Of a stretch of DNA of 64,000 nt, positions 1,568 through 49,543 are shown in pieces (the first letter of the stretch is position 1; every line of letters begins with the position of its first letter). The DNA is from Trueperaceae bacterium (GTDB lineage Bacteria > Deinococcota > Deinococci > Deinococcales > Trueperaceae). The DNA lies in the NCBI GenBank assembly GCA_965215565.1, contig CBDCDZ010000004.1, positions 2,688,001-2,752,000 on the forward strand, in the 5' to 3' direction. The notes under the pieces are model-generated. The model was not told the DNA's origin. It saw only the letters and a program-made list of their open reading frames with translations, and searched no databases. The position numbers and the translations under genes are program-made.

Positions 1568-1658
1568 AGCAATGAGCAACGAGCAATGAGCAATGAGTTT
1601 TTGGTTTTCACTCATTGCTCGTTACGGGCGTGCCCTGCCGTTTCACTGCTCATTGCTT
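1568..1658. repeat. Inverted heptamer tandem repeat (GCAATGA)n / (TCATTGC)n carrying a 22-nt insert at 1621-1642
   Basis: AGCAATGAGCAACGAGCAATGAGCAATGAG...CTCATTGC TC[GTTACGGGCGTGCCCTGCCGTT]TC ACTGCTCATTGC. Confidence 0.85.
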
Positions 1659-1686
1659 TCAACTTCTACTCTCAAAGGAAATGCTG

Positions 1687-2007
1687 ATGGTCCCTACTGA
1701 GTATTACGTGGCTTTAAGTGCTGTTATTTTTTCGATTGGCGCGGTGGGCGTGTTGACGCGCCGCAGCGCAATTATGATTTTCTTATCCGTTGAACTCATG
1801 CTCAACGCGGCGAACTTGGCGTTGGTGGCGTTTGCAAGAGGTTGGGCGGGCGCGGGCGCTGAGATTGCTATGTCGGGGCAGGCGGCGGTCTTTATTATTC
1901 TGGCGATTGCGGCGGCGGAGGTTGCGGTGGGTTTAGGCATCCTCGTCGCGATTTTCCGCTACCGCCGCTCGTCGGACGTGGACACGCTCCATGAGGTAAG
2001 GCTATGA
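1687..2007 (+). CDS. nuoK: NADH-quinone oxidoreductase subunit K
   Basis: ELMLNAANL and AAAEVAVGL motifs; start moved to ATG 1687 after AAGGA. Confidence 0.96.
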   Translation: MVPTEYYVALSAVIFSIGAVGVLTRRSAIMIFLSVELMLNAANLALVAFARGWAGAGAEIAMSGQAAVFIILAIAAAEVAVGLGILVAIFRYRRSSDVDTLHEVRL

Positions 2008-3989
2008 CACCAGAAGCTCTTGCGAACGCGGAGGTTCTCACCCTCGACGTGATCTCACTCGCCGCCGCCGCGCCGCTCTTCCCGCTTATAGGCGCGATTA
2101 TCTGTGGTTTCTTCGGACGGAGTTTGAACGAGCCTAAGCCGGGGATATTCGCTTCGATTATGGTCGGCATCAGCTTCATTCTCTCGACAATCGCGTTCAT
2201 TGGACTCCTGGGACGCGAGGAGCCGAGCGTCTCGGTGGTGCTCTGGGATTACCTCTCGGCGGGGAGTTTTGACCTCGATATCGGCTTTGTCATTGACTCG
2301 CTGAGCGTCACGCTGATGATGATTATCACGGGCGTCGGCTTCCTGATTCACATTTACTCGGCGGGTTACATGCACGGTGACGACGGCTACAGCCGCTACT
2401 TCGCTGGGCTCAACCTCTTCGTCGCGGCGATGCTGGTACTCGTCATGGCGGATTCGTTTTTGCTGATGTTCGTCGGTTGGGAAGGCGTCGGGGTCTGCTC
2501 ATACCTCCTTATCGGCTTTTGGTACGGAGACCGGCTCAACGCGGACGCGGCGCGAAAGGCATTTATCGTCAACCGCATCGGGGACGTGGGCTTTTTGCTA
2601 GCGATGTTTTTGACGGTTGCTATCTTCGGCACGCTGAATATTGCGGCGGTCAATGAGGCAGTGTCTGGTGTCGGCGGTGGGCTCCTCGCGGGTTCCGCCC
2701 TTATCACGGTGCTCGGCGTCCTCTACCTCATCGCGGCGTGCGGCAAGTCGGCGCAGCTCCCCTTGCAGGTGTGGCTCCCCGACGCGATGGCGGGACCGAC
2801 GCCCGTCTCGGCGCTCATCCACGCGGCGACGATGGTCACGGCGGGCGTGTATCTTATCGCTAGGGCGGCACCTCTTTTTGCAGCCACACCCATCGCGTCA
2901 GCGGCGGTGGCGTGGGTCGGGGCGATTACGGCGTTCGTGGCGGCGTTTGCGGCGCTTTCGCAAACGGACATCAAGAAGATTCTCGCGTACTCCACGGTGT
3001 CACAGCTTGGCTATATGTTTGTGGCGGTTGGCGTCGGCGCGTATTGGGTCGGCATCTTCCACGTCGTCACGCACGCTTTCTTTAAGGCGCTGCTCTTTCT
3101 CGGGGCGGGCTCGGTGATTCATTCGCTCGGCGGCGAGCAGGATATTCGCAAGATGGGCGGTTTGGGCAAGCACATGAAGGTAACGGGGACAACCTCTTTG
3201 ATTGCGACGTTAGCGATTGCGGGCGTGCCGCTCTTGGCAGGCTTCTTCAGTAAAGACGCGATTCTGGCGCACACCTATAACACGCAGCTCTTAGAGGGCT
3301 ACGGCAGCCTCACCCTCTACAGCATCTTGCTCACCACGGCGGGGATGACGGCGTTCTACATGTTCCGCTGGTACTACCGCGTGTTTGCAGGTGAAGAGAG
3401 GTTGACGAGTGAGGCGAAAGAGCATCTGCACGAGTCGCCCCGCACGATGACCACGCCTCTTGTTATCCTAGCGGTTTTTAGCATCGGCATTGGCTACATC
3501 GGTCTGCCTGAGTTCGCCTTTCCCAATTGGATTGCGCCGTGGCTCGAGCACAGCACCGGACACCCCGTCTCCTTCAACCATCCGCCTGTCACGATTGAAT
3601 GGATTCTCATCGGGCTTTCAGTGGCAGCGGCGACGGTTGGTCTTCTCGTTGGCTACTTTATGTATGGTGTCGGCAGTGGCGTGTCGGAGGAGCGCTCGAG
3701 CACAGGTTTCGCTGGCGCACTCCACCGCTTCTCGCAGAACGGTGCAGGCTTCGACGCACTTTACAAAGCCATCTTTGTCCGCACGGGTGAGGGGGCAGCG
3801 AGAGGTCTTTCTATTGGCGATCAAGAGGTCGTAGATAAGGGGCTGAATGGCACTTACATCGGAGTGGGGATTCTGGCTCGAGCTGTTGGGCTCCTCCAAT
3901 CGGGCTACGTGCGAGCTTATGCGCTCCTCATGCTCTTAGGACTGGCGGCGCTCGTCCTACTCGTCGCCTTCGGTGGAGTGGTCCTATGA
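2004..3989 (+). CDS. nuoL: NADH-quinone oxidoreductase subunit L
   Basis: GKSAQLPLQVWLPDAMAGPTPVSALIHAATMV; HAFFKALLFL. Confidence 0.98.
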   Translation: MTPEALANAEVLTLDVISLAAAAPLFPLIGAIICGFFGRSLNEPKPGIFASIMVGISFILSTIAFIGLLGREEPSVSVVLWDYLSAGSFDLDIGFVIDSLSVTLMMIITGVGFLIHIYSAGYMHGDDGYSRYFAGLNLFVAAMLVLVMADSFLLMFVGWEGVGVCSYLLIGFWYGDRLNADAARKAFIVNRIGDVGFLLAMFLTVAIFGTLNIAAVNEAVSGVGGGLLAGSALITVLGVLYLIAACGKSAQLPLQVWLPDAMAGPTPVSALIHAATMVTAGVYLIARAAPLFAATPIASAAVAWVGAITAFVAAFAALSQTDIKKILAYSTVSQLGYMFVAVGVGAYWVGIFHVVTHAFFKALLFLGAGSVIHSLGGEQDIRKMGGLGKHMKVTGTTSLIATLAIAGVPLLAGFFSKDAILAHTYNTQLLEGYGSLTLYSILLTTAGMTAFYMFRWYYRVFAGEERLTSEAKEHLHESPRTMTTPLVILAVFSIGIGYIGLPEFAFPNWIAPWLEHSTGHPVSFNHPPVTIEWILIGLSVAAATVGLLVGYFMYGVGSGVSEERSSTGFAGALHRFSQNGAGFDALYKAIFVRTGEGAARGLSIGDQEVVDKGLNGTYIGVGILARAVGLLQSGYVRAYALLMLLGLAALVLLVAFGGVVL

Positions 3990-5479
3990 TTCTGACCTTA
4001 CTAGCGCTCTTCTTACCTTTTCTGACAGGTCTGCTCGCCCTGGTTATTTCAGGACGCGGACGACAAATTACCGTTTTGCTTGGCAGCTTGGCAACCTTCG
4101 CGGTGGCGATGCTTCTGCCTAGCGCCTCCGGCATCGAGGTTCCCTGGTTCGAGAGTTTGGGCATTTACTTCTCGGTGAGTCCGGCAGGTGCAGGCAGCGT
4201 GCTTGTGCTCGTCGCCTCGCTCGTCATGATTCCAACTGCATATTACGCAGCCACAAAAGTCGAGGAGCGCACGGGCGCATTTGTCGCGCTGCTCCTCGCC
4301 ATGCAGACCGGGCTCAACGGCATTTTCATGGCGCAGGACTTGGTGCTCTACTACATCTTCTGGGAAGCGACGCTGATTCCTAGTGTGCTGATGCTGGGGG
4401 GATGGGGCTTGGAGCGCCGTCAACAAGCCGCCCTCAAATACCTGACCTACGCCGTCGCTGGCTCATTTCTCATGCTCGTTGCTATCCTCGCTTTACGCCC
4501 CATTTCGGGCGCAGCGAGCTTCCGCATGGTGGACCTCTTAGCGGTCACGCCGCAGCTTCCGTTTTTCACACAGCTTTGGCTCTTTATCGGCTTTGCTTTA
4601 GCGTTCGCTGTAAAGCACCCGCTCTGGCCGCTGCACGCTTGGCTGCCACACTTCCACGAGCAGAACCACCCCTCGGGGGCGGCGGATGTCGCTGGGACGC
4701 TCTACAAGGTCGGCGGTTGGGGTTTCTTCGCCTTTGCGCTACCTCTTTTCCCGGACGCGGCGGCGGCGGCTTCGCCGATTCTTGTGGCGGTGGCGGCCTT
4801 TACCGCACTCTACGCGGCGATGATTGCCACCGCTCAAACCAATCTCAAGCGACTTCTCGCTTACGCTTCACTCTCACACATGGGCATCGTCGGGGTGGGG
4901 ATTTTCGGTCTGAATATCGCAGGGCTCAACGGTGCGATTTACCTTCTCGCCGCGCAAATGGTCTCGACGGGCGGACTTTTCCTCCTCAGCGGGATGCTCT
5001 ACGAACGGCGCGGCTCGTTCGAGTTAGATGATTACGGCGGTCTTGCGAAAGGTGCGCCCGCATTGGCAGCCATCACCCTCTTCGTGATGTTCGCGAGCAT
5101 CGGCGTGCCGGGGCTCGGCAACTTCCCCGGTGAATTCATGGCGCTCATGGGCGCGTTTCAAACCGCGCCTTACATCGCGGGCTTCGCAACGCTCGCGGTG
5201 ATTGCGGCGGGCGTATATGGGGTGAACATGTATCAGCGGCTTTATCAGGGTGAGCAAAAAGGTGAAGTGTGGGATATGGGGCGGCTCGAGCTGCTCATCC
5301 TCGCCCCCCTCTTAGCAGGCATTGTCTGGCTCGGGGTGACACCGCAGCCACAGTTAGAGAGGATTGAGCGGCAGTCACGGATTGTTCTGACGCAGTTGGA
5401 GGCGCAGCAGCGGGTGAACGCTGAAGGGGAGAGGCTCGAGCTTGTCCTCCAAGAAGACGTACAAAGAGGTCAAGACTAA
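3986..5479 (+). CDS. nuoM: NADH-quinone oxidoreductase subunit M
   Basis: FWE, PLHAWLP, KRLLAYASLSHMG, PGLGNFPGEF. Confidence 0.96.
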   Translation: MILTLLALFLPFLTGLLALVISGRGRQITVLLGSLATFAVAMLLPSASGIEVPWFESLGIYFSVSPAGAGSVLVLVASLVMIPTAYYAATKVEERTGAFVALLLAMQTGLNGIFMAQDLVLYYIFWEATLIPSVLMLGGWGLERRQQAALKYLTYAVAGSFLMLVAILALRPISGAASFRMVDLLAVTPQLPFFTQLWLFIGFALAFAVKHPLWPLHAWLPHFHEQNHPSGAADVAGTLYKVGGWGFFAFALPLFPDAAAAASPILVAVAAFTALYAAMIATAQTNLKRLLAYASLSHMGIVGVGIFGLNIAGLNGAIYLLAAQMVSTGGLFLLSGMLYERRGSFELDDYGGLAKGAPALAAITLFVMFASIGVPGLGNFPGEFMALMGAFQTAPYIAGFATLAVIAAGVYGVNMYQRLYQGEQKGEVWDMGRLELLILAPLLAGIVWLGVTPQPQLERIERQSRIVLTQLEAQQRVNAEGERLELVLQEDVQRGQD

Positions 5480-6930
5480 TGCTAGACGTCAACCTGCTCA
5501 ACTTCACACCGCCCATCGCGCTTCTTGTCACCGCTTCTATCAGCGTACTGTTCGCTTTAACTCAGAAGAGCAGCAAGCCGACAGCAATTTTAAGCCTTGT
5601 CGGGTTGGCGGTGGCAGCGGGTTTCAACGCGCAGCTTTTCATCCGGAGTGGCACAGACCAACTTGGCTCGTTCGGCTTTCGCTACTTGGCAGACCGCCCC
5701 GCACTGGCGCTCAACTTCGTCATCATCCTCGGTACAGCGCTCGCCATTCTTATCTCCTACGACTACCTCAAGCGCACCGAACTCGGGCACCCCGAATACT
5801 ATCCGCTGATTTTGCTGAGCGCGACAGGTGCGATGATTATGGTGGCGGCGGGTGACTTGATTGTGCTCGTGCTGGGATTAGAAATCATGTCGCTCGCGGT
5901 CTACGTCCTCTCGGCGTGGCGGCAAAATGCACGCGAATCCGAAGAGGCGGGGATGAAATACTTTCTCTTGGGTGCGTTCGCGTCGGCGTTTCTGATCTAC
6001 GGCATTGCACTGATGTACGGCGCGACGGGGCAGTTTACTTACTTCGGCATCGCGGAAGCGCTGACAGCAGAAGGCTTTAGTCAAGGACTTCTTGCCACGC
6101 TCGGCGGTGTGTTTATTTTAGGTGGCTTAGGGTTCAAAGCGGCTTTAGCGCCCTTCCACCAGTGGTCGCCTGACGCCTATACGGGCGCACCTACCTCTGT
6201 CACGGCTTTTATGAGCATCGTCGTGAAAACGGCGGCGTTCGCGGCGTTAGTCCGAGTCTTTACGCTTATCTACCCAGACTTGGGCGTTATTGTGACGCAG
6301 AGCTTCGTGGTGCTCGTGGCGCTTACGCTCATCGTGGGCAACTTGGCGGCGCTCTTACAGCGGAGCGTCAAGAGGTTGTTGGCGTACTCCGCAGTCGCTC
6401 ACGCGGGCTACTTAGGACTCGGTGTTCTGGCTGCGAATGAGGTCGGAACGCAAGCGCTCATCTGGTACTTGACCGCCTACACCTTGATGAACGCGGGCGC
6501 GTTCGCTGTCCTCACGATGATTAGCGATAAGAATGACCACGGCGACGACTTAGAGCGCTTCGCAGGTCTGGGACAAAAACGCCCCTGGCTCGCCGCGATG
6601 ATGACGCTCTTTCTGCTCAGTTTGGCAGGGATTCCGCCCTTTGCGGGTTTTATGGGTAAGATTCTGGTGTTTCAAGCGGCGATTCAAGCGGAGTACATCT
6701 CGCTCGCTGTGATTGGGATCCTCACGAGTATCGTCGCGGTGGTCTACTACTTCCGCGTGATTGCGTACATGTATTTCCGCGAAGTGGAGTACGAACCGCT
6801 CGATATTCAGAGTCGTGCGACGAACATTGCGATTGGTGTGGCGGCATTTGGAACGGTGGCGTTAGGACTTCTACCGGGCTGGTGGTACGGGCTTCTCAGT
6901 GCGGGAAGACAGCTTATTGCAGGTTTGTAG
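5479..6930 (+). CDS. nuoN: NADH-quinone oxidoreductase subunit N
   Basis: EAGMKYFLLG, PFHQWSPDAYTGAP, SLAGIPPFAGFMGK. Confidence 0.97.
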   Translation: MLDVNLLNFTPPIALLVTASISVLFALTQKSSKPTAILSLVGLAVAAGFNAQLFIRSGTDQLGSFGFRYLADRPALALNFVIILGTALAILISYDYLKRTELGHPEYYPLILLSATGAMIMVAAGDLIVLVLGLEIMSLAVYVLSAWRQNARESEEAGMKYFLLGAFASAFLIYGIALMYGATGQFTYFGIAEALTAEGFSQGLLATLGGVFILGGLGFKAALAPFHQWSPDAYTGAPTSVTAFMSIVVKTAAFAALVRVFTLIYPDLGVIVTQSFVVLVALTLIVGNLAALLQRSVKRLLAYSAVAHAGYLGLGVLAANEVGTQALIWYLTAYTLMNAGAFAVLTMISDKNDHGDDLERFAGLGQKRPWLAAMMTLFLLSLAGIPPFAGFMGKILVFQAAIQAEYISLAVIGILTSIVAVVYYFRVIAYMYFREVEYEPLDIQSRATNIAIGVAAFGTVALGLLPGWWYGLLSAGRQLIAGL

Positions 6931-6945
6931 ACACTCCTTTAAGCT

Positions 6946-6979
6946 GATCTCTTCTCGTAAAAGGGAAGAGGTCTTTTTT
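6946..6979 (+). terminator. Intrinsic terminator after nuoN
   Basis: GATCTCTTCTC-GTAAAA-GGGAAGAGGTC followed by TTTTTT. Confidence 0.7.
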
Positions 6980-6989
6980 ATTCTCCTGA

Positions 6990-7382
6990 CTAACGCGCGT
7001 AGTTCCGCACCATCATCCCCCTCGAGCCCACCATCCCCAACCGCTCATAAAAGGGCTGAAGCGCCTCGTCGCACAAGAGGTCAACCATGTAAAGGTGGCT
7101 GAGTTTGCCCAACATTCGGCGCATAAGAGTCGTGCCTATCCCTCGTCCCTGATATTCGGGTAGAACTTCCAGAAGCGGAACGTAAGCTGAAAGAATCCCG
7201 TCTGAAATGGCGGTGACGAAGCCGACGACGCTATTAACCTCTTCATCAAATGCGAGGACGACGTAGTTGCTCCTATGTAGAAGCTCGAGCAACACCTCTA
7301 CGGAAGGTGGCTCAGGCCAACCGACAAAAAAGCCCGTAAGCTGTTTTGCTGAGATGTTTTGAGGAGACTCGAGGTAAACCAT
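6990..7382 (-). CDS. GNAT family N-acetyltransferase
   Basis: LEVLPEYQGRGIG acetyl-CoA motif, FYERLG; TACACT -10 box 7 nt before ATG. Confidence 0.9.
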   Translation of the reverse strand: MVYLESPQNISAKQLTGFFVGWPEPPSVEVLLELLHRSNYVVLAFDEEVNSVVGFVTAISDGILSAYVPLLEVLPEYQGRGIGTTLMRRMLGKLSHLYMVDLLCDEALQPFYERLGMVGSRGMMVRNYAR

Positions 7383-7471
7383 ACCCTAAAGTGTAACGAT
7401 TTCCACTCACCTCTTTAAGACACGAAAATTCACCCCGCAAGGACGCTGTGGGTCACTACAATACAAGCTAT

Positions 7472-8524
7472 ATGGACCTCCAGTTTATGAAAATCCTGAT
7501 TGTCGATGACGAAGAAGTCAACGTTTTACTTCTCAAAGGCATCTTGCAGCGGGCGGGCTTCACGCAGTTCACGGCGCTGCGCAACTCGGGCAAAATCACC
7601 GAGCACTTCCTCTCGTGTCAGCCTGATTTGATCCTCTTAGACCTTCACATGCCGCAAAAAGACGGCTTTGAAATCTTAGCGGAACTCGCACCGTACCTCG
7701 AAGCGCCCAACTACCTCCCCGTGCTGATGCTCACCGCTGATGACCGCCTGGAGAATCGGCAGCGGGCGCTGAGCGAAGGGGCGCGGGACTTTCTTCCTAA
7801 ACCCTTTGATAGCAGTGAGGTGGTTCTGCGCGTGCGCAACCTCTTGGAAGCGCGTTACTTTCATAAGCAGTTGCAGCAGCAGAATGAGCGCTTAGAGAAG
7901 CAGGTCACGGAGCGGACGCAGCAGCTTGAAGGTGCACAAATCGAGATGCTCGTACGCCTCGCCAAAGCCGCCGAATACCGCGATGAGGAGACGGGCGAGC
8001 ACACCTGGCGTGTAGCGCACACCTGCTCGCTGTTGGCGCGGGAGTTAGGGTTAGGGACCGAACGCGCCGACATGCTCCTCCGCGCTGCTAGACTTCATGA
8101 CGTCGGTAAAATTGCCATCCCTGACGGTATTTTGCTCAAACCGACTAGGCTCACGCCGGAAGAATTCGGCGTCGTGAAGACGCACACGACCGTAGGCGCA
8201 AAGCTCCTCTCGGGCGGACAGTCACCCCTGATGAAACTCGCCGAACTCATCGCCTTAAATCATCACGAACGCTTTGACGGCTCGGGCTACCCGCAGGGCT
8301 TACAAGGTCAGAAAATCCCTATTGAGGGGCGCATCATGGCGGTTGCGGATACCTTCGACGCGCTGACGCATGACCGCATCCACCGCAAGGCGTGGAGCGT
8401 ACCGGACGCTGTTGTGGAGATCGAATCGCAACGCGGTAAGCAGTTCGACCCCGCCGTGGTGGACGCTTTTATGAACCTCTTAGAGCGCGGTGAAATCGTG
8501 ACGACGATGCAGGACGCGGCGTAA
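7472..8524 (+). CDS. Response regulator with HD-GYP phosphodiesterase domain (RpfG-like)
   Basis: REC (IVDDE, LLDLHMP, FLPKP) plus LHDVGK and HHERFDGSGYP. Confidence 0.93.
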   Translation: MDLQFMKILIVDDEEVNVLLLKGILQRAGFTQFTALRNSGKITEHFLSCQPDLILLDLHMPQKDGFEILAELAPYLEAPNYLPVLMLTADDRLENRQRALSEGARDFLPKPFDSSEVVLRVRNLLEARYFHKQLQQQNERLEKQVTERTQQLEGAQIEMLVRLAKAAEYRDEETGEHTWRVAHTCSLLARELGLGTERADMLLRAARLHDVGKIAIPDGILLKPTRLTPEEFGVVKTHTTVGAKLLSGGQSPLMKLAELIALNHHERFDGSGYPQGLQGQKIPIEGRIMAVADTFDALTHDRIHRKAWSVPDAVVEIESQRGKQFDPAVVDAFMNLLERGEIVTTMQDAA

Positions 8525-8657
8525 AGCAGGTTCCTTCGGAAGCTTCGCGCACTCAGGCGAAGCCTAGCGGAACTTCATCTGGTCACGAACGTGCTCACTT
8601 GAGAAAGCATCAATAAACTCGCACGTTTAGAGATGATGCCTGCGTGACACAATCTCA
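8525..8657 (-). mobile_element. 111-bp MITE-family copy with two micro-inserts
   Basis: AGCAGGT[20 nt]CTCA[22 nt]TCTGGTC...GATGATGCCTGCGTGA. Confidence 0.75.
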
Positions 8658-8993
8658 ATCTGACCTCTCAGTCGGCAACTCCGCCCCTTTCCACGCGAGG
8701 ATACCGCCCTCGACGTTAACGGCTTTGTAGCCGTTCTGGTTGAGAAACTGGACTGCTTGAGCGCTCCGCGCTCCACTGCGGCAGTGCACGACGACCTCTT
8801 CACTTTTATCAGCGGGGAGGTCGTCTTCGTAGCGTCGTGTGAATTCGGATAAGGGTACGAGCTTCGCGCCGGGGATGCGCTCCTCGTCGTACTCGTTTTG
8901 CTCGCGCACGTCGATAAAAAACGCGCCTTCGTCCACGCGGCGCTTGGCTTCTAAAACGTCGATTTCTGGCACTTGGTTCTGTTGGTTATCCAT
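8655..8993 (-). CDS. Rhodanese-like sulfurtransferase
   Basis: IDVRE, HCRSGARS, GGILAW; TATAGT 6 nt before ATG 8993. Confidence 0.92.
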   Translation of the reverse strand: MDNQQNQVPEIDVLEAKRRVDEGAFFIDVREQNEYDEERIPGAKLVPLSEFTRRYEDDLPADKSEEVVVHCRSGARSAQAVQFLNQNGYKAVNVEGGILAWKGAELPTERSD

Positions 8994-9090
8994 TTCGCTA
9001 CTATAGCGCTGGATAGATTTCTGGTGAGTTAGCCCCAGACCAAAAAAGCACCTCAGCGTGAATCTATTTGCAACCTCTCCCCGCTTTATG

Positions 9091-9201
9091 TAGCACTTCC
9101 AAAATATACTGAGACAGATGAGCGCAGATATCATCTCAGAATGTGCGTGCTAAATGGTGTTCTTTGCAGTAAGAGTGTTTCAAACCAGATGATACCTGCT
9201 A
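9091..9201 (+). mobile_element. 111-bp MITE-family copy (full length)
   Basis: TAGCACTTCC...GCAGATATCATC...CAAACCAGATGATACCTGCTA. Confidence 0.85.
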
Positions 9202-9250
9202 ATGAAAGCCTGAGACCAAACCTCACGTACGACTTCTTTAGACTGAAGAG

Positions 9251-9757: not shown

Positions 9758-9854
9758 CTTGGGGAGAGGTTCGTAAATTTGACTACATACCTCCCCACCC
9801 CTTTCACTCTAAAATCTATAGTGGGTAGTAGACCATTTAAGAAAGAGGTAAAAA

Positions 9855-10385: not shown

Positions 10386-10413
10386 CAACTCACTTCTATG
10401 TTATCTTCTCCCT

Positions 10414-16506: not shown

Positions 16507-16605
16507 CGTAGGGGCAGTTCATGAAATTGCCCCTACGAAACAGCGCTGCCAGACGGTACAGGGAACGCAGTGACGTGTAAGGGCGGGTTTCAAACCCGCC
16601 CTTAT
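16507..16605. repeat. Two REP-like palindromes between convergent pyk and mfd
   Basis: CGTAGGGGCAGTTCATGAAATTGCCCCTACG (16507-16537) and GTAAGGGCGGGTTTCAAACCCGCCCTTAT (16577-16605). Confidence 0.8.
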
Positions 16606-22540: not shown

Positions 22541-22651
22541 TAGCAGTTCCAAGACACACTGAGACAAAGTGTCGCAGGTATCATCACCGAATGTGTGTGC
22601 TTCACGATGTTCTCAAAAGTGCGGATGTCTCAAACCAGATGGTACCTGCTA
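22541..22651 (+). mobile_element. 111-bp MITE-family copy (full length)
   Basis: TAGCAGTTCC...GCAGGTATCATC...CAAACCAGATGGTACCTGCTA. Confidence 0.85.
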
Positions 22652-26579: not shown

Positions 26580-26690
26580 AGCAATGAGTTGAAAGCAATC
26601 CAGTCAAGCTGGTGCGCGTTAGCCTCCGAAGGAACGAACGGTGAGCAATGAGTTTTTGGTTTTTACTCGTTACTCATTGCTCGTTGCTTT
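26580..26690. repeat. (GCAATGA)-type inverted heptamer repeat with ~36-nt insert
   Basis: AGTTGAAAGCAAT[insert]GAACGGTGAGCAATGAGTTTTTGGTTTTTACTCGTTACTCATTGCTC; same family as 1568-1658. Confidence 0.75.
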
Positions 26691-32045: not shown

Positions 32046-32283
32046 CTCCACCCCCAAAGTAGACGTGCGACAGCCCAGAAGACTCTTGAAGTTGACTCTA
32101 TCAACCTCTTAGCTAAGTCTTATAGACTGCTGTTTACCTCTAAGAGTACACAAAAAGGAAAGTTGTGTATAGAGGTAGATGTACCTATAGCAAGTCCCTT
32201 CAGTTACGAAGTTTCCCTTTCGCCTTGCTGCTTCACTCCCCCTGGGCAAAAACGGTGTAATACGGGTTCTGATTGATTACCTA

Positions 32284-32542: not shown

Positions 32543-32653
32543 CAGCGGTTAGCAGAAGTACTGAGCTTGAATCACGCAGGTATCATCTCATGATGTGCGT
32601 GCTGCACAGTGTTTTATCTCGTGAGATTGGCTCAAACCAGATGATACCTGCTA
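32543..32653 (+). mobile_element. 111-bp MITE-family copy (full length), tandem to previous
   Basis: TA|CAGCGGTTAGC...GCAGGTATCATC...GATGATACCTGCTA|TA. Confidence 0.88.
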
Positions 32654-32847
32654 TACATAAACTCCGTTATGGAATTTTGCTTTCCTGGAGGGAAACTTCG
32701 TAACCAGCAAACGCTTCGGGTTGGCTAGCTGGACCTTATCTGAAACAAGGGGTTGAAACCCCTTATCGTCGCGTGAAGACAGCAGAAGGAGGGCGGCATT
32801 CGACTTTTACGTTTCGCCGCGTTCTATCCTCGCTGTTCTATCCTCAC

Positions 32848-41617: not shown

Positions 41618-41636
41618 CGGCTCAGTATGGCATATG

Positions 41637-41903
41637 TAGCAGGTATCATCTGGTCAGCGACACTCTCACTGTGCGCGTTGCTGACTAGCACGCACATTGT
41701 GACAGCAGGTTCCTTCGGAAGCTTCGCGCAATCAAAGTCTGTCTCACTGGCGTTCGGAGCTGGTCAGCTACACTTTCACTAAAAAGAACATCGCCTAGCA
41801 CGCACTTAATTGTGATGAAATTCCGCTATTGCTGCGCAATGAGATCTGCGAAGAAGTGTTGCTTCGCATGACTTCGTCCAAGCAATGATAAGTGGAACTG
41901 CTA
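41637..41903 (-). mobile_element. Truncated MITE copy (41637-41702) followed by a second copy (41703-41903) with four micro-inserts
   Basis: TAGCAGGTATCATCTGGTC..GCACGCACATT then CAGCAGGT[20]ATCA[25]CTGGTC..GATGA[25]ATCTGCG..[~21]..GGAACTGCTA. Confidence 0.8.
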
Positions 41904-41966
41904 TAAGTACTACCAACTTTAGAAAGACCTTTTAGGACGGGCACTTTACCCCGCGCGAGAAACTTT

Positions 41967-42308
41967 TCAAAACACCGCTTTGAGATGTTCCAGATCATGC
42001 TCTTTTCGTGTACCTACTAAGAGAATGGCGTCGAAACGTAGGGGCAAGTCGTCTCGTTCGTACGTTTCGGTGAGGTAGTGTAGCGCGGTGTGGCGCAGCT
42101 TGGCGATCTTCGAGCGGCTGATAGCGTCTGCGGGCGTGCCGTAGCGCGTATTCTTCCGCTGCTTGACCTCGACGAAGACGAGCACGTCGCCCTCTTGCGC
42201 GATGAGGTCCACTTCGCCCCGGCGACAGGTGTAGTTGGTCTCTAAGACTCTATACCCTGCGCCCTCCAGATAGCGCCGCGCTACCTCTTCTGACCAGTGC
42301 CTTATCAC
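41967..42308 (-). CDS. yraN: YraN family (UPF0102) endonuclease
   Basis: E..A.RYL..GY, GEVDLI, LVFVEVKQR, RFDAI. Confidence 0.92.
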   Translation of the reverse strand: MIRHWSEEVARRYLEGAGYRVLETNYTCRRGEVDLIAQEGDVLVFVEVKQRKNTRYGTPADAISRSKIAKLRHTALHYLTETYERDDLPLRFDAILLVGTRKEHDLEHLKAVF

Positions 42309-42423
42309 GCGCTCAAACTAGCGGTGTACCGCGTTTTGTGCCGGGCGTCGCGAGAAGACTGTAGTGAGGGAAGCCAATATCTGTTTGCGCACAAAACGGG
42401 ACACCTTAAATCACCCCTTGAGC

Positions 42424-42816
42424 CTAGGTGGGCTCGATCTCGAGCCGCTCCGCATCCGCCCAGAGCCCTTCTAAATCGTAAAACTCTCGCGCGTCCGGGC
42501 TCATGACGTGCACGACGATATAGCCGTAGTCCATCAAAACCCAGCGCCCCGAGGGCCCCTCGATTGCTTTAGGCACCGTGCCCGCGCCTTTAAGCTCCTC
42601 CTTGACGCCGTCCTCCATCGCTTTGAGCTGCAAACTCGACTCGCCCGAGGCGACGATGAAATAGTCGAGCGTTTCTGAGGCGGTGCTCAGGTCCATCACG
42701 ACGATGTCTAGGGCGCGTTTGTCGTCTAAAGCGTTGACGATGAGTTGGACTTCGCGGGGAACGTCCGCGCTGATGTTGGCTGTGTCTGTTTGTGGTGTGA
42801 CGTGTTCGGTATCTAT
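42424..42816 (-). CDS. rsfS: Ribosome silencing factor (probable ATA start)
   Basis: ALDDKRALDI, DYFIVASG, WVLMDYG, REFYDLEGLW; conserved N-terminus lies upstream of the first GTG. Confidence 0.9.
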   Translation of the reverse strand: MDTEHVTPQTDTANISADVPREVQLIVNALDDKRALDIVVMDLSTASETLDYFIVASGESSLQLKAMEDGVKEELKGAGTVPKAIEGPSGRWVLMDYGYIVVHVMSPDAREFYDLEGLWADAERLEIEPT

Positions 42817-42866
42817 CTCGAGCGCCTCCTCAAAAATCCGTGCGAAGATGGTTGACTTCTGTTCTC

Positions 42867-42888
42867 AACATAACCTAAACATAACCTA
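42867..42888. promoter_or_regulatory. Perfect 11-bp tandem direct repeat upstream of rsfS
   Basis: AACATAACCTA x2. Confidence 0.5.
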
Positions 42889-42937
42889 GAAAAACGTACG
42901 CTTGCGTGTTTATAAGCGTGTTTTTGCGAGTGTGCCG

Positions 42938-44209
42938 TCACTCCGCTTGCGCCAACTGCACGTAAAAAAACTCTCGTGCGTCTCGCCCTAAGACGATCTC
43001 GATATCTGCGCCGATGTCGCGCTCAAAGCGGTCGATCTGCTGCACGCCCAAGCCCAAGAGGTCAGCGTAGTAGTTCGCGGCTGAAAGCGTGCGTCCGGTG
43101 GTGAGCACTTGCGACGAAGGGACGCCCTGCGCCTCCGCCACGCTGAGCCGCGCCTCCGGGACGCCCAGCCCCACGAGGATGCGCTTCGCCTCATTTGCCA
43201 AGGCGGGCACGCCGCTACGGTTTGAGATGCGCACGCTCGCCTCAGGCATCCGGGTGAGTTCGCGCGCCTCGCCGCCGAAGTGTTCGGCTAGAAACGCCTC
43301 GGTGCGCTGCCGGTTCGTCTCGACGTAGCGTCCACTGCCCTCGACGTCGTTGGTGGGCAAGGTGGCGGCGTAGATTTCCAGGTTGGGAAGGCGGGGGATG
43401 AGCTGTGAGACCAGCGCGGGGCTGACATTAGTGTCGACTTCCTCGAGGTATGTAGAGGCGAGCTTGGGCAGCGTCCCTACCGCCCGCACGTTCTGCTCTT
43501 TGAGCTTAGCGAGCAGCGCGCGCGCCAGCGTCTTCACGTTGTCGATTCGGTCGATGTCGCCGCGCAGGGTCTGGCGGTAGCGGATGAACCCGGCTGCCTC
43601 TTCACCATTTAGATGCTGAAAGCCCGGCTGCAGATCAATGGTAAGCCCGGCCGCTTGGTCCTGCCAGTACATCCGGTAGGGCACGTCTAAGTCCACACCG
43701 CCTACCGCGTCCACCAATTTTTCGAAGATGCCGATGTTGATGACTGCGTAGTAATCCACAGGGACGTTGAGAAGCTCCGAAACCGCCCGCCGCACGTGCT
43801 CGGCGCGGTTCATGCCGCCGAAAATCTCGGGTCCGTAGGTGTAAATCTCGTTGATGCCGATGTCGTATTGGGGCAGCAAGAGGTCTCTGGGGATATTGAC
43901 CATGTAGACCTTATTGCCGACGATATTGACAAAAATGACCGTGTCGGTGCGAAAGCCGAGTTCCGCTTTGGTGGTGTAGGCGCGCTGCAGCTTGCCATCT
44001 TTCCAGACCATTGGACCGGCAGGCTGATAGTTGTAGTCGCGCCCCGCCACCACGAAGCTCGCCTGGAACGCGCCGTCCGGGTTGACGAGGTCTCTTTGCT
44101 CGTCGCTCAAAACCGTGCGCTGCGCGCCTTGGGTGAGCCAGAAGCCCGCGATACCCCCGAGCCCGATGAGCAGCCCTATGACCTGAACGAAACGACTGAA
44201 GTTACGCAC
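42938..44209 (-). CDS. LCP (LytR-CpsA-Psr) family protein with LytR_C domain
   Basis: RTDTV, IPRD, VDAVGGV, L.GEEA..FIRYR..GDIDRI. Confidence 0.92.
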   Translation of the reverse strand: MRNFSRFVQVIGLLIGLGGIAGFWLTQGAQRTVLSDEQRDLVNPDGAFQASFVVAGRDYNYQPAGPMVWKDGKLQRAYTTKAELGFRTDTVIFVNIVGNKVYMVNIPRDLLLPQYDIGINEIYTYGPEIFGGMNRAEHVRRAVSELLNVPVDYYAVINIGIFEKLVDAVGGVDLDVPYRMYWQDQAAGLTIDLQPGFQHLNGEEAAGFIRYRQTLRGDIDRIDNVKTLARALLAKLKEQNVRAVGTLPKLASTYLEEVDTNVSPALVSQLIPRLPNLEIYAATLPTNDVEGSGRYVETNRQRTEAFLAEHFGGEARELTRMPEASVRISNRSGVPALANEAKRILVGLGVPEARLSVAEAQGVPSSQVLTTGRTLSAANYYADLLGLGVQQIDRFERDIGADIEIVLGRDAREFFYVQLAQAE

Positions 44210-44220
44210 GTTGCCCTAGG

Positions 44221-44826
44221 TTAAGCTAACCCGTTGGACCGGGTGCAAATCTCCCGGTAGACCTTCATCGTCGCAGGGTGGACCGCTTTGCCCTTGGAAC
44301 GCAGGTAGTTCACCTTGGAGTTGACCGCCCGCTGATACGCCCGGAAGAGGTTGTGCATCGCCAACTCGCGGATATCCGCGTTGACGCCGCGCCCAGGCTC
44401 GGACACGTCGGCGATATAGACCGCCATGCCGATGCGGTTGTCGTGTGAGACACCGAACACGTGCCCCTCAACCGAGTCCAGGACGCGCTCGTCGTTGACG
44501 CCCCACCCCTCGATGATGCGCCTGCCCGCGCGCCCGTGTACCGCTAAGGGGTGTTTTTTCTCCAACTCCGTTTCGGGGGGCGCGAGCGCGAACATCTTCT
44601 CGGGTGGGAGGTCTCGCGCGACGTCGTGCAGCGTCGCCGCGAGGCTCGTCGCCCGAATCTCATCCTCAGAGAAGTCGTTCGCTCTAGCAATCGTCTCGGC
44701 GAGGATAGCGACGCGCACGATATGCTCGAAGCGCTCCGCGCTGACCATCTCCTTGACGCGCGCGCAGTAGGGTTGCACGCTAGTTCTGGTGCAGGGGCTG
44801 TTGACGGTAAAGAGGGTTTTTTGCAA
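44221..44826 (-). CDS. yqeK: YqeK-family HD hydrolase (Ap4A hydrolase)
   Basis: RFEH..RV, LHDVAR, HG.AG, YIAD.SEPGR; follows nadD. Confidence 0.85.
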   Translation of the reverse strand: MQKTLFTVNSPCTRTSVQPYCARVKEMVSAERFEHIVRVAILAETIARANDFSEDEIRATSLAATLHDVARDLPPEKMFALAPPETELEKKHPLAVHGRAGRRIIEGWGVNDERVLDSVEGHVFGVSHDNRIGMAVYIADVSEPGRGVNADIRELAMHNLFRAYQRAVNSKVNYLRSKGKAVHPATMKVYREICTRSNGLA

Positions 44827-45373
44827 GGTAGCTCTCCACGGGTTCGGGAACGAGATAGCGAACGCTCTCTCTATGGGCTAAGCGGCGGCGGACCTCGGTG
44901 CTCGAGACCTCCCACAGCGGCGTGTCTAAGATACGGACTCTCTCCTTGAAATAGGGTTCAACCTCATTGACCGTGTAGTTCGGGCGGCTCAGCGCCACCA
45001 CCGAAACAGACGACACGAGTTCGCGGGCACGGTGCCAACTGCTGATCTCTCTGTAAGCGTCCGCGCCCGTAATGAAAAAAAGCTCGTCGTTGGGGCGCTC
45101 CGCGCGGACCTTGGAGACCGTATCAAAGGTGTAAGACGCGCCTGTGCGCTCGATCTCTAGGCGGCTCACGTGAAACTGCGGGTGGGCGTTCGTCGCGAGT
45201 AAAAGCATCTCGAAACGCGCTTCGGGGGCAGCGGCAGCCTCTTTGTGAGGGGGTGTTTTCGCGGGGATGAACCACAGCGCGTCAAGCCTCAGCACCTCTA
45301 GCGCACGCTGCGCCACCATGAGGTGACCGGCGTGTACAGGATCAAAGCGTCCGCCGAAAAGACCCAATCTCAC
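44780..45373 (-). CDS. nadD: Nicotinate-nucleotide adenylyltransferase
   Basis: GGRFDPVHAGH, PPHK, SYTFDT, ITGAD, SSTEVR. Confidence 0.96.
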   Translation of the reverse strand: MRLGLFGGRFDPVHAGHLMVAQRALEVLRLDALWFIPAKTPPHKEAAAAPEARFEMLLLATNAHPQFHVSRLEIERTGASYTFDTVSKVRAERPNDELFFITGADAYREISSWHRARELVSSVSVVALSRPNYTVNEVEPYFKERVRILDTPLWEVSSTEVRRRLAHRESVRYLVPEPVESYLAKNPLYRQQPLHQN

Positions 45374-45490
45374 CGTACGAGCCTCATCCTATAAACCTCA
45401 CTGTACAAACCTCTGCGTGATTCCCACAAAGCCCCCACCGCAAGAGTGTACCTCTTGGGGAAGGGGAGATGCGTGCAGGTATCACAATAC

Positions 45491-46777
45491 TTAGTCTACC
45501 TCGTTTTGTACACCGGGAACCCTGGTTTTATCTTCATCAAAGTACTCAAAAACGGCGTCGCCAATCGCCACGTCGTCGCCGTCTTGTGCGCCCGCCTTTT
45601 TGAGCAGTTTGTTCACACCTAAAGAGGCGAAGTGGTGCTGCAGATAGGACACGGCGTCGGGGTTCGTCGGGCTGAAGCGGGCGATGACCGCTTCGATCTC
45701 AGAGCCCGTGACGCGCCAAAAGCCGTCCTCTTGAACGACGCGCACCGGGTCTACGACGACTTTCGTAGGTGTAGGGCTAAGGGGTGTAATCTCAGAGCGC
45801 TGCGGCAATAGCTCGAAAAGGCTTTGGCGCAGGGCGTCTAAGTTTTGGGCCTCGAGCGCCGACACCGCCAGCACGGGTAGCCCGAAGCGTGTCAGGGTAG
45901 CGACGATCTCCTCCACCTCTTCTTCGGCTGCCAAGTCCGTCTTATTCAGCACGACGAGCCCAGGCAAATCCAGAAGGAGCGGGTCGTATTCGCGCAATTC
46001 GCGCCGGAGCGCCTCTAGGTTTTCGGCGGGCGACTCCGCGATGTCGAGTACGAAGACGAGCAGGCGCGTACGTGAGATGTGCCGCAAGAACTCGAGCCCC
46101 AACCCCTTGCCCTTGTGCGCGTCCTCAATGATGCCGGGGATGTCCGCCAAGGTGAACCGCTCGTGCTCGCGCTCGACAATCCCTAAATTCGGACTGAGCG
46201 TCGTAAAAGGGTAGGAGGCGATCTGCGGTTTAGCGTTGGAGAGCGCCGCTAAGAGGCTCGACTTGCCCGCGTTCGGGTAGCCGACTAGGCCGATATCGGC
46301 AATCGTACGCAGCTCGAGCCTGACGCGCCGCTTGTCGCCCTTCGTACCGAATTCCGCGAAGCGCGGCGCTTGCCGCTTCGCCGTCGCGAACGACGTGTTG
46401 CCGCGCCCGCCCAGACCGCCCTGCGCGACGAGCGCGCGCTGCCCAACCTCCAAGAGGTCCGCGAGCACGTCGCCCGTGTCTAAGTCGGTGGCTAGCGTCC
46501 CAACCGGAACTTTAAGGGTGACATCTTCGCCCTTCGCGCCCGCCCGGTTGCGCCCTTCGCCCTGTCCGCCCGTCTGCGCTTTATAGAGCCGCTGCCCCAC
46601 CATTCGCTCTAAAGAGGAGACGTCGTCGACTGCCTCTAAGTACACGCTCCCGCCGCCGCCGCCGTGCCCGCCATCGGGTCCGCCCTTGGGCACGTACTTG
46701 AGGCGCAAGAACGACATGCCGCCGTCGCCGCCTTTGCCGCCTTGAACTGTGATGTCGAGAACGTCCCTCAGTGCCAT
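45491..46777 (-). CDS. obgE: Obg GTPase
   Basis: Gly-rich Obg fold, [23 protein letters not shown]-terminal DUF1967-type domain. Confidence 0.98.
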
Positions 46778-46803
46778 TGCGTAACCTCTCTACCTCCGGG
46801 CAG

Positions 46804-46835
46804 AAAAAAGACGCGAGGTTGGTCCCCGCGTCTTT
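46804..46835 (-). terminator. Intrinsic terminator after rpmA
   Basis: AAAGACGCG...CGCGTC then TTTTTT on the minus strand. Confidence 0.75.
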
Positions 46836-46850
46836 CGCTTAAAAGTTTTC

Positions 46851-47129
46851 TTAGTCCGCTGCGATAGCAGGCGAATCTTGGTTCTCGATGCTGATAAAGC
46901 GCCCTTTAGAGCCTTTGTTGTGGAACTTTACCACGCCGTCACGCATCGCGAAGAGCGTGAAGTCGTTGCCTTGCCCGACGTTCTTGCCGGGCTTGAATTT
47001 CGTGCCGCGCTGACGTACTAAAATATTGCCAGCCAGAACAACCTGTCCCTCGAAACGCTTGACGCCCAGGCGCTTCGACTCGCTGTCGCGTCCGTTTTTA
47101 GAACTGCCTACACCCTTCTTATGTGCCAT
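46851..47129 (-). CDS. rpmA: 50S ribosomal protein L27
   Basis: [24 protein letters not shown]. Confidence 0.99.
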
Positions 47130-47130
47130 T

Positions 47131-47427
47131 TTAGCCTCCTCGAGGGAGCGTAACGCGCTCTCTCTGCTCTTTCAAACTTTGCCAAGCGCTCCTGTCTCGG
47201 GGCTGCACCCAGTCTCGCCCTATTCTCTCCCAATTCGGGTCCTTCGGGTTGAGACCTAGCTCACGAACGCCTTCTTCTTCGGTGACGAAATACTGCTTCT
47301 TGTAGGGGAAGAGATATCCGCCTTGCTCCTCTAGCGAGGCGCGCGCCTCTTCGTAAGAGGTAAACCAGCGGTTCAAAACAGCGTCCATCTGCGGTACGTA
47401 CATGCTCGGCTTGGATGATTCCGTCAT
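47131..47427 (-). CDS. Hypothetical protein between rplU and rpmA
   Basis: GGAGGT RBS; aromatic-rich WF.SYEEA..GGYLFPY..QYFV; 3' end contains the rpmA RBS. Confidence 0.8.
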
Positions 47428-47490
47428 CTTGACCTCCGTGAATCTGCTGCCGGGAAGGACGCTCTAACCTCTACTTAAAAGCGCAACCTC

Positions 47491-47802
47491 TTAACCCGTG
47501 ATTTTGCCGATGCGAATTTCAGTATAGGGCTGGCGGTGACCGTTCTTACGGCGGTAGTTCGCCTTCGCCTTGAACTTGTAGATATAGATTTTCTTGCCGC
47601 GCCCATGCGAAACAACCTCTGCTTTGACGTTAGCGCCGTCTACTAGGGGTGCGCCGACTTTGACTTCGGTGTCATCGCCGCCTAACATCATGACGGGCAA
47701 CTCGACGGTCTCGCCGGGTTCGGCTTTCAAGGACTCGAGCCTCAGCACGTCCCCCTCGGTCACGCGGTACTGTTTGCCGCCACTCTGAATAATTGCGAAC
47801 AT
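47491..47802 (-). CDS. rplU: 50S ribosomal protein L21
   Basis: [21 protein letters not shown]; start 47802 after GGAGGT. Confidence 0.99.
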
Positions 47803-47964
47803 TTCAACCTCCGGCTGTTTTATCCCTACTCGGTACACGCTTGGTACACGGTGGTGAAAAGCAGCGCTTCTATACTCAAAAATAAACCCTGGACATCCGA
47901 ATCAGCTCTCGAACGACGCCCAGGACTCGCCCGACGAAGCGGGTTTTTCGAAACTCGACTACAT

Positions 47965-48054
47965 CAACCGAGTTTGAATTGTGCAGCTATAATCTCACGC
48001 AAGTCAATCGAAGCTCTTTCGAGCGAAAACGCTTGTGACCAGACAATACCTGCT
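47965..48054 (+). mobile_element. Diverged MITE-family copy abutting tRNA-Ala 3' end
   Basis: CCGAGTTTGAATTGTGCAGCTATAATC...GACCAGACAATACCTGCT. Confidence 0.6.
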
Positions 48055-48057
48055 TGG

Positions 48058-48133
<76 letters not shown>

Positions 48134-48221
48134 ACGCCGCTGCCCAACTAAAAACGGAAGCAGCAACGGTTAGTTTAGCGTCTTTAGCCCGCCTGTGTCA
48201 AGCGTCGACGTAGCTAAGAGA

Positions 48222-48641
48222 TCAGGTTTGCTTGGCGTCTCGCGCTGCCCGCGCCGCTGCCCGGTCCTCTTCCTGGCGGCTCACGTCCGTCTTGAGGCGC
48301 GCCGCTTTGCCGCGCAGCTCGCGCAGGTAGTAGAGCTTGGCGCGCCGCGTGCGCCCGCGCCGCACGATCTCGACTGAGTCAATGAGCGGTGAGTGCAGCG
48401 GAAAGACACGCTCGACGCCCTCGCCGAAGCTCACCTTGCGCACCGTGAACGACGCCCGTGCACCTTTTTTGCCATTTTGACGCGCGATGGCGACGCCTTC
48501 GAACGCCTGGACGCGCGTGCGGTTGCCTTCTGACACCTTGTAGTTGACGCGCACCGTGTCGCCCGTATCGAATTCGGGGATGTCGTCGCGCAAGTAAGGC
48601 TGCTCGATAGAGCGTAAGATCGCGCCTTTATTGTATTTCAC
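48222..48641 (-). CDS. rplS: 50S ribosomal protein L19
   Basis: [36 protein letters not shown] 48641 after AAGGAGG. Confidence 0.99.
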
Positions 48642-49033
48642 CTTGAATGCCTCCTTTGACGGTTCTTTTTTCACATGTCTTTCTCTGCACAGTGCTTCAA
48701 AAACGCTGTTACTGCTGCGTTATCCTGCGTGATAGTAGATTCAAATAGAGAATTGCCTGAGCGACGAAACATAACACTCCTAGATGCTCGTCCACACAAC
48801 CTTGTTATATTAGCGTGCGCGCGCCTTCTAACGCAAGTGCGCTGGAGACGAACGCTCCTTCTGTGAGCTAGTCGAACCTCGTGTCGCGGATGGAGCTAAA
48901 CAAAGAGATTGCGAATATAGCAGCCCAGAGTTAGCGGAAGCGTTCCGCGAGGCGCACCGTGGTCGTTTGGCTCGAGCTAGCCCCCTCGAAACAATCGGTT
49001 CACTTTCCCGCCTTGCATCTATTCGCTCGACTA

Positions 49034-49144
49034 TAGCGGTTATCAGAAGTACTGAGTTTGAATCACGCAGGCACCATCCCCTAAAGTGCGTGCTGAACGA
49101 TGTTTTATCTCGTGAGATTGGCTCAAACCAGATGATACCTGCTA
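49034..49144 (+). mobile_element. 111-bp MITE-family copy (full length, TA-flanked)
   Basis: TA|TAGCGGTTATC...CAAACCAGATGATACCTGCTA|TA. Confidence 0.88.
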
Positions 49145-49291
49145 TATTCGCTCAGTCGCAACGTTTGGATGTCGCGTCACTGTCTCGGGCTTGCACAGAT
49201 TCGAGTCTGTATAGAGCGCGATTTCGGGAACTTCGGAGCGTTTCTAAAGCGCTCACGCCTAAGACCGCGTGGCGGCGGGTTCGCAATTTTC

Positions 49292-49543
49292 TAACAAGTA
49301 TCATCTGGTTTGAGTGTACGTAAGTTTGTCCCGGTTACACCGTTTTCGCGTCTGCGAAAGGGAAACTTCGTAAGCGAAGCAACGCTCTCACTGTAAAAAA
49401 CACCGTTTCCTAGCGGAAAACTGCGCAACTAGCACGCACATTCGAAGATGAAATCCCGCAACGGCAGGGCGGCCTGCCCGTAACGCTAGTCCTTGCGGAC
49501 AGAGATCTGCGGAACTCCGTCTCAGTATATTTTGGAAGTGCTA
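49292..49543 (-). mobile_element. MITE-family copy expanded by three insert blocks, one doubly nested
   Basis: Collinear with the reverse complement of 9091-9201 (shares GTCTCAGTATATTTTGGAAGTGCTA) plus inserts. Confidence 0.82.

Follow-up and report, generated by a model that had tools for sequence, protein, structure and literature searches.

The 64,000-nt stretch of the Trueperaceae bacterium contig CBDCDZ010000004.1 that was analysed here (the window) holds two copies of a micro-element, a short-loop form at positions 1621-1642 on the minus strand and a longer form at 49460-49484 on the plus strand, which is a real, precisely inserting unit of 24-27 nt and very probably mobile in its own right. 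[quoted passage not shown] Both copies lie where that annotation had placed them and are flanked by GA...GA and GC...GC, respectively, and direct reading of the sequence confirms that excision of 24 nt at the first copy gives back the heptamer series CTCATTG-CTCACTG-CTCATTG. The pattern of the element is matched twice in the window and not once in 100 dinucleotide shuffles. The home genome (G000; 4.49 Mb, 99.99% complete) contains 36 copies of the strict pattern, 35 of which have equal flanking dinucleotides. If up to one mismatch per half is allowed the number rises to 39, comprising 35 copies with GC and three with GA on both sides and a single one with GC and GA; the 25-nt variant accounts for 31 identical copies among the 39. 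The proposal had been made to depend on there being more than the two window copies, on 2-bp repeats flanking the others, and on the existence of empty alleles, and all three are found.

Among 364 Deinococcota genomes the element is present in five, of which G000, G001, and G002 belong to one genus and G005 and G063 to a second. A sixth match, in G311 and the only one in another family, is without the left end and was discarded. In a scan of one genome per species, eight of the 17 matches have true flanks, and all of these come from records titled Trueperaceae. The flanks or hosts of the other nine, of all 14 metagenome matches, and of one viral match do not fit, many of these matches being located in a uvrB-like coding motif, so that they look like chance; a BLAST search of plasmids with the element also returned chance matches only. 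The element is present in contigs of sequencing runs from a separate study, where a form shortened by one base predominates, and is therefore not an artefact of the assembly. Contigs searched for an exact skip of 24 or 27 nt at both window copies contained none, which says nothing on rare excision. The 25-nt core is predicted to fold into a bulged hairpin of 8 bp (-7.5 kcal/mol), and the ends of the element read AACGG and GTAAC and do not form terminal inverted repeats. Variation among the copies is mostly found in the loop, and there is too little variation in the stem for a covariation test. It had also been noted that the net insertions are multiples of three. This is correct for the two window copies (24 and 27 nt) but does not hold as a rule, given the 26 nt in G001, G002, and one copy of G005, and the 21-25 nt of the sister families described below.

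The ten target types have junction ambiguities of 1-6 nt, and every copy found is located in a repeat or in a transposase gene; no copy was found in ordinary genes. The 22-nt window copy lies in one arm of a hairpin of heptamer repeats in the spacer between nuoJ and nuoK. Three of the heptamer hairpins of G000 are filled and many paralogues are empty. At the orthologous nuoJ-nuoK site a variant of the element is also present in G002, and no orthologous empty allele was found there, G001 and G005 having different heptamers. The spacer hairpin itself stays in place across the relatives and its heptamers differ (GCAATGA in G000 and G002, ATTCAGA-type in G001, AAAGAGG-type in G005), which resembles the heptamer repeats of cyanobacteria. 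The host of the 25-nt window copy (H1) is a micro-insert within a MITE-like repeat, and 30 of the 39 copies of G000 sit in this one site, which is filled in 26+3 and empty in 24+8 cases. The second repeat host comes in two forms (H2a and H2b), and 3+4 empty H2 sites were found, whereas searches at the repeat-like sites H4 and H6 did not reveal a convincing empty allele. Four of the targets are transposase genes, whose family labels are best matches that fall short of the curated cut-offs except for the Mutator and HTH_Tnp_1 Pfam matches. An IS256/IS66-like gene is filled in G000 and empty in G001, G002, and G097, an IS4-like DDE gene has the element in G005 and G063 but not in G079, where the site is empty, and an ISKra4-like gene filled in G063 has an exact empty allele in G005. 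For an IS3 orfA-like gene filled in G063, no empty allele was found among the loci compared. As regards the checks suggested in the initial annotation, precise empty alleles are thus available for most target types including three transposase genes, and all four coding insertions, each in a transposase gene, are in frame with 24 or 27 nt. The copy in the transposase gene of G000 brings a stop codon in the likely reading frame (frame judged by eye). Transposases may carry the element between genera. Two rules for the choice of target were tried. An upstream TGAR motif is common to eight of the first nine target variants and missing in two found later (by eye), and a pairing of the loop with the target, such as a TC loop with GA, fails as the TC-loop form also sits at GC and GACCT loops are found at GC. 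A repeat of H2 type of about 130 nt (region of G000 C4:4264287) lies between TCG repeats at the same site as the second IS110 family in G002 (L123) and may be a non-autonomous IS110 module; another repeat of H2 type interrupts an IS110 transposase gene within its first codons (L138, G002 C2:567343).

A tree built from the backbones of 63 MITEs with H1 (85 columns, with many forks left unresolved) was used to trace the history of the H1 site. On it the filled state takes 19 changes compared to 20 with shuffled labels, the starred branches force at least seven, and for 20 of the 25 filled H1 copies the nearest backbone is without the element. Filled copies are scattered across the tree of the host MITE, and the element therefore behaves like a unit that is mobile. 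H1 and the element may move together as a block of 52 nt, and the tree does not count insertions of the element alone. The diversity just left of the H1 insert is not reduced (0.37 in filled versus 0.34 in empty copies), the linkage between left and right is intact (r 0.42), and five H1 haplotypes are filled; right of the site the diversity is somewhat lower in filled copies. Co-conversion of the flanks was not seen at the H1 insertions, and gene conversion explains the data less well than a clean insertion into copies that already existed. From the ten targets and the five filled H1 haplotypes we infer a floor of about ten insertion events. The bulk of the copies (30 of 39) were probably gained by riding inside the H1 insert. 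Altogether, the micro-element likely ranks among the smallest known units of mobile DNA.

The 2-bp repeat at the junctions had initially been described as a target duplication. The repeat itself is confirmed by equal flanks in 38 of the 39 copies, but its reading as a duplication is weakened by copies reading GC...GA and GC...GT; eight of the ten target types are symmetric and two asymmetric. Two paralogous H2b copies read GC...GA at a place where the closest empty allele (G002, L140), the flanks of which are nearly identical, has GA, while other GA empty H2 alleles are less close than L140, and one copy of G005 reads GC...GT. Because of these copies the left GC is probably borne by the element. 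Judged by the junction sequences, it is reasonably probable that this GC travels with the element, that entry occurs before a G with GC being preferred, and that the 2-bp repeat represents a matched core and not the duplication left by a staggered cut. Two observations argue the other way. The 22-nt form has GA on both sides in heptamers and GC on both sides in a transposase gene, which would fit a true duplication, and GC and GA alleles of H2 coexist, so that a later mutation or conversion is possible.

Table 1. Positions of the micro-element, its hosts, and the sister micro-inserts in the window.
Feature	Position	Strand	Remarks or basis
22-nt micro-element core (short-loop variant)	1621..1642	-	net insertion 24 nt including one GA
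22-nt micro-element with both flanking GA (junction ambiguity)	1619..1644	-	2-nt ambiguity computed on paralogous heptamer copy
25-nt micro-element core (commonest variant)	49460..49484	+	net insertion 27 nt
25-nt micro-element with both flanking GC	49458..49486	+	ambiguity 3 nt (CGC)
Host 1, palindromic GCAATGA-type heptamer hairpin, nuoJ-nuoK spacer	1569..1656	.	arms 1569-1596 and 1611-1656
Host 2 (H1), 25-nt hairpin-tail micro-insert lodged in MITE; element enters between CCCGC and TAG	49452..49504	+	site of 30 of the 39 genome copies
MITE-like repeat with TAGCAG...CTGCTA ends and a backbone of 111 nt, about 270 genome copies	49292..49543	+	carries six micro-inserts
Sister micro-insert, 22 nt, split (49315-49328 and 49374-49381), MITE hotspot 23	49315..49381	+	holds two nested inserts; lengths sum to 67-nt insertion
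Sister micro-insert, 21 nt, inside hotspot-23 insert, itself interrupted	49329..49373	+	one of the six in this MITE copy
Sister micro-insert, 24 nt, fourth nesting level	49335..49358	+	one of the six in this MITE copy
Sister micro-insert, 22 nt, MITE hotspot 48	49407..49428	+	one of the six in this MITE copy

The micro-element is one family among many hairpin inserts of 17-27 nt, which nest up to four deep in G000. The three nesting levels described earlier for the 25-nt copy were recovered, with the element in the H1 insert (49452-49504) and the latter in the MITE (49292-49543). This MITE copy is 141 nt longer than the backbone, and six micro-inserts of 22, 21, 24, 22, 25, and 27 nt fully account for the difference, one nest being four deep. 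In the alignment of the MITE, to which 272 of the 399 end-matches could be aligned well, hotspots are fixed near columns 23, 48, 68, 76, and 88, and each has its own family of 20-25 nt with a tail and a hairpin; many of these sister inserts have GNAG ahead of the stem. A genome-wide search for filled and empty states in the repeats of G000 resulted in 146 bubbles, some rows of which are alternative parses of the same site, with a length peak at 21-24 nt and zero junction ambiguity in 74. One sister tail motif is present in 86 copies in G000, in 34-35 in its two congeners, and in at most four in the other 118 genomes of the family. The micro-element itself serves as a target for other micro-inserts. 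In addition to the copies counted above, G000 contains five copies interrupted in this way (C4:116069, 2621968, 1934427, 618872, and 186972; either the tail is interrupted, by 22 nt, or the loop) and one with an internal deletion. The MITE backbone shows neither codon periodicity nor a clear covarying structure, and an Rfam search of positions 49000-49700 gave no match. Other copies of the 111-nt MITE in the window are found at 9091-9201, 22541-22651, 32550-32653, 41637-41903, and 49034-49144, some with sister micro-inserts, and the last of these faces the copy at 49292-49543. Sister micro-inserts with tail and hairpin outside the studied MITE are located at 235-258, 26600-26680, 32204-32227, and 32680-32703, among them one of a CCAG-hairpin type within a heptamer array. 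Elsewhere in G000 (C4:179865-179946) the left end of the MITE is present in four tandem 27-nt copies.

Based on the junctions, the mobile unit would be GC-AACGG...CCGTAAC, with GA- instead of GC- in the heptamer form, and its entry point would lie immediately 5' of a G, in most cases at GC; the element would supply the left dinucleotide and the target the right one. It could move as a single-stranded piece by single-strand excision and strand transfer, cut and rejoined by an enzyme acting in trans, which would most likely be an HUH transposase of the Y1/RAYT type. This proposal as a whole, a hairpin unit moved single-stranded by an HUH-type enzyme in trans, is tentative and should be taken as somewhat short of probable; the narrower claim that an HUH enzyme moves the micro-element deserves the same caution. 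An even more far-reaching scenario is unlikely, in which a single-stranded transposon of 24-27 nt near the physical minimum, distantly akin to SDR5 of Nostoc (see below), moved by HUH/RAYT and with a G-anchored core, would live only in mobile DNA and cross genera in transposase genes. Of the HUH enzymes, TnpA-REP is described in passages of PMC3333891 and PMC8266576 as cleaving and recombining single-stranded hairpin substrates, with the site chosen by a dinucleotide. The HUH class is preferred here because action on single-stranded hairpins suits a 27-nt unit better than enzymes that need two double-stranded ends. The tail-plus-hairpin form of the sister inserts, which mostly come without duplication (the 74 bubbles with zero ambiguity), is in line with this class.

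As already stated in the initial annotation, the window does not contain a mobilising enzyme, and family searches for Y1, RAYT, IS110, reverse transcriptase, and GIY-YIG gave none within its coordinates. A RAYT-like gene with seemingly intact HUH and Tyr motifs is located between mutS- and mutL-like open reading frames (ORFs) in G000 (L155, C4:3590035-3590553, minus strand) and G001 (L156). It carries an internal repetitive extragenic palindrome (REP) with a double GTAG foot, which is present in about 33 copies in G000, one of them at 16508-16536 of the window, and the GGGCAGG...CCTGCCC stem is shared by one variant of this REP. Y1-type genes are present as IS200-type genes in G005 and as mostly broken genes in G063. 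The single PF01797 match of G000 lies inside a restriction-modification ORF (L063, C4:3784707-3788675), a 1322-aa methyltransferase-endonuclease-like ORF with the Y1/HUH domain in frame; this domain is unmatched in all five relatives, and it has REP-like CAAGGGG...CCCCTTG arms, a REP with about 76 copies in G000. The best matches to a small GIY-YIG gene lie in G000, G001, G002, and G005, which are kin, and the loci are without copies of the element; this gene was not counted as evidence. A motif scan of ORFs for other nucleases revealed nothing linked to the element, the scan being insensitive as it overlooked the RAYT and GIY-YIG genes.

Several observations weigh against an HUH enzyme, and against this RAYT in particular. 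The folding energy of the 25-nt hairpin is no better than that of shuffled sequences (z -1.1). The likeness to the REP region within the RAYT gene is modest and was noticed after the fact, equally high scores being reached by 1.5-5.5% of random 80-nt segments. With 73 bits the RAYT stays below the cut-off of 80, and it already comes with a REP family of its own. Its query is unmatched in G002, G005, and G063, so that the gene is found in two of the five carriers, and its REP, with 47 copies each in G001 and G002, drops to 0-1 copies in G005 and G063, in which the element occupies four hosts; given the 47 REPs of G002, loss of the RAYT gene in this genome is possible. PF01797 searches of G001 and G002 gave no match, and blanks of such profile searches are soft given that the PF01797 search overlooked the RAYT later picked up with NF047646. 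The guide rule, as worded in the published passages, assigns CT or CA to GTAG and GA or GT to GTAC, and it fails to predict the usual GC site from any stem-adjacent tetranucleotide (by eye). A bias for the lagging strand was not detected, with 18 plus and 18 minus copies of the element and 64 versus 67 copies of a sister family, in a genome with weak GC skew in which cargo makes up most of the copies. Finally, no enzyme family searched for tracks the five carriers.

The main rival to the HUH model, which we consider rather unlikely, is template switching without a dedicated enzyme, in which a nascent strand ending in G or GC would jump to a folded donor, copy the hairpin, and return, guided by short homologies. 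It would agree with the absence of a searched enzyme family that tracks the carriers, with the many unrelated hairpin families acting alike in one genome, and with junction homologies that extend beyond the core in some hosts (5 nt in H5, 4 nt in H8, 6 nt in H9, and 3 nt in H1). However, the excess of microhomology is marginal (P about 0.04-0.08 versus random GC sites). Moreover, the ends of the element are identical in all ten targets, and the sister families repeatedly occupy the same few MITE positions to the base, without any homology, which suggests specific recognition.

Insertion at a dinucleotide core by a bridge recombinase of IS110, in the way known for modules consisting only of RNA, is improbable for this unit. 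Such mobile RNA-only IS110 modules do exist according to PMC12288879, and IS110 elements leave a core of 2-3 nt on both sides. IS110 looks active in G000 and G002 and lands at junctions also used by micro-inserts. Seven identical copies in G000 are inserted between GGTATC and ATCT in the MITE end, a junction that the H2b target of the element has on the opposite strand, and an IS110 of G002 uses the TCG site where hosts of H2 type also sit in G000. However, a double-stranded circle of 27 bp is physically implausible by the established mechanics of DNA. In addition, the PF02371 search of G005 gave no match, the element is unlike IS110 ends (by eye), and its other targets are without a long guide-like consensus. 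The seven identical copies (L064-L070; G000 C4:638904, 681817, 1227201, 1291182, 2530389, 3106709, and 4136505) all occupy the TC core of the 111-nt MITE's left end. In G002 and G063, related IS110 elements aim at the same MITE end, shifted by about 3 nt in G063.

A movement through RNA, by reverse transcription or RNA-templated repair, is said to have been proposed for the cyanobacterial repeats discussed below, and for the micro-element it is similarly improbable. The units fold as small hairpins and G001 has four copies of a long ORF with an RVT_1 domain, but there is no RVT_1 match in G000, G002, and G005, and of these G000 has the most copies and is 99.99% complete. The four ORFs of G001 (L150, L153, L154) encode 618-637 aa with the domain split by an insertion, and one adjoins an IS256-like fragment.

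That the element is passive cargo, deriving from a few old insertions which were spread solely by transposition of the MITE and gene conversion between repeats, is very improbable. The accumulation of 30 of the 39 copies in one site, the age of the nuoJ-nuoK copy, which is common to G002, and a 52-nt H1-plus-element block that could move as one piece would all suit this view. They have to be set against ten target types, four of which are unrelated transposase genes, exact empty alleles where tested, the lack of flank co-conversion, and the five filled H1 haplotypes. We give hardly any credence to an ultra-small but genuine MITE with a DDE transposase as its mover and a real duplication of 2 bp of the target. 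The 38 copies with equal flanks and the 22-nt form matching its target in two hosts (GA and GC) could be cited for it, but terminal inverted repeats are absent, GC...GA and GC...GT copies exist, and 22-25 bp look too short for a paired-end transpososome.

Elements of this kind are already known and the mover is not identified among the families searched, which limits the interest of the finding; the evidence on the ends and targets of this element in Deinococcota is good. The literature search, the founding paper on the cyanobacterial repeats aside, gave no later answer on how repeats of 21-27 nt move, and it did not find a paper on such elements in Trueperaceae. The family is unusually clean material for this question with its ten target types and exact empty alleles in three transposase genes, its asymmetric junctions point to the bases that the element takes along, and for a genome that is 99.99% complete the candidate enzymes are few. 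With a precisely inserting unit of 27 bases there would be a lower bound for mobile DNA, and such a unit might be of use as a compact insertion tool. If the element were indeed a single-stranded transposon moved by HUH/RAYT, this class of repeats would gain its first candidate pair of enzyme and substrate.

Compared with known systems, the element shares with bacterial MITEs, which are tabulated at 104 bp and longer in passages of PMC3184786, that it is non-autonomous and present in multiple copies at sites found both filled and empty. It is about four times shorter, does not have terminal inverted repeats, and its duplication is doubtful. The ssr9 module of the IS110 element ISPpu9, as described in PMC12288879, is likewise small and non-coding with a short repeated core, and its repeat targets are also used by IS110. 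Unlike this RNA gene module the micro-element is much shorter, bears no likeness to IS110 ends, and has many unrelated targets, and G005 is without a PF02371 match. The RAYT-like gene of G000 and G001 with its internal REP shows a feature resembling subclass 2.4 in passages of PMC6006769. With the REP/REPIN-RAYT systems the element has in common a short G+C-rich hairpin, a GCAG before the inner stem, and the choice of sites at the level of a dinucleotide. Unlike REPs and REPINs, it does not have a GTAG or GGAG foot (one strand reads GCAG, the opposite one TTAC) or a CT site, and it is a single unit instead of a doublet. It is not clustered around the RAYT gene, the locus of which has its own different REP and no copy of the element.

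The closest known kind are the small dispersed repeats (SDRs) SDR1-8 of the Nostocaceae, above all SDR5, which Elhai et al. are said to have described in 2008 and which reportedly measure 21-27 nt. Their secondary structure is said to be conserved and backed by compensatory changes. The likeness to cyanobacterial SDRs pointed out in the initial annotation holds for the size class and for precise insertion with filled and empty alleles. The element resembles SDRs in size (net 24-27 nt), non-coding hairpin form, short preferred site, insertion into other repeats, and in that the mover is not identified. The SDRs of the Nostocaceae are covered in passages of PMC4390886, PMC5861425, PMC2884548, and PMC3116915. 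Of these, PMC4390886 places the insertion of SDR5 between bases 3 and 4 of the highly iterated palindrome HIP1, GCGATCGC, and passages of PMC5861425 state that HIP1-rich cyanobacteria not belonging to the Nostocaceae yielded no SDR-like repeats. Such 21-nt inserts between bases 3 and 4 of HIP1 are also present in the Nostoc plasmid NC_010631.1 (354 kb), where their first two bases vary (AT, TA, TT), and as in the micro-element the 2-bp repeat is seen in only some copies. The best match of the 22-nt form on this plasmid is a HIP1 insert (19 identities in 24 columns, shuffle P 0.006), a weak resemblance that leads the background by only 1 point. The 25-nt form has no significant match there (35% of shuffles are as good), and the exact motif is absent from the plasmid. 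Unlike for SDR5, none of the ten targets is HIP1, the target of the element being G(C), and unlike the SDRs of the Nostocaceae it belongs to Deinococcota. The element likely works like an SDR, and it is an element of SDR-like kind in a further phylum that may or may not belong to one of the named SDR families.

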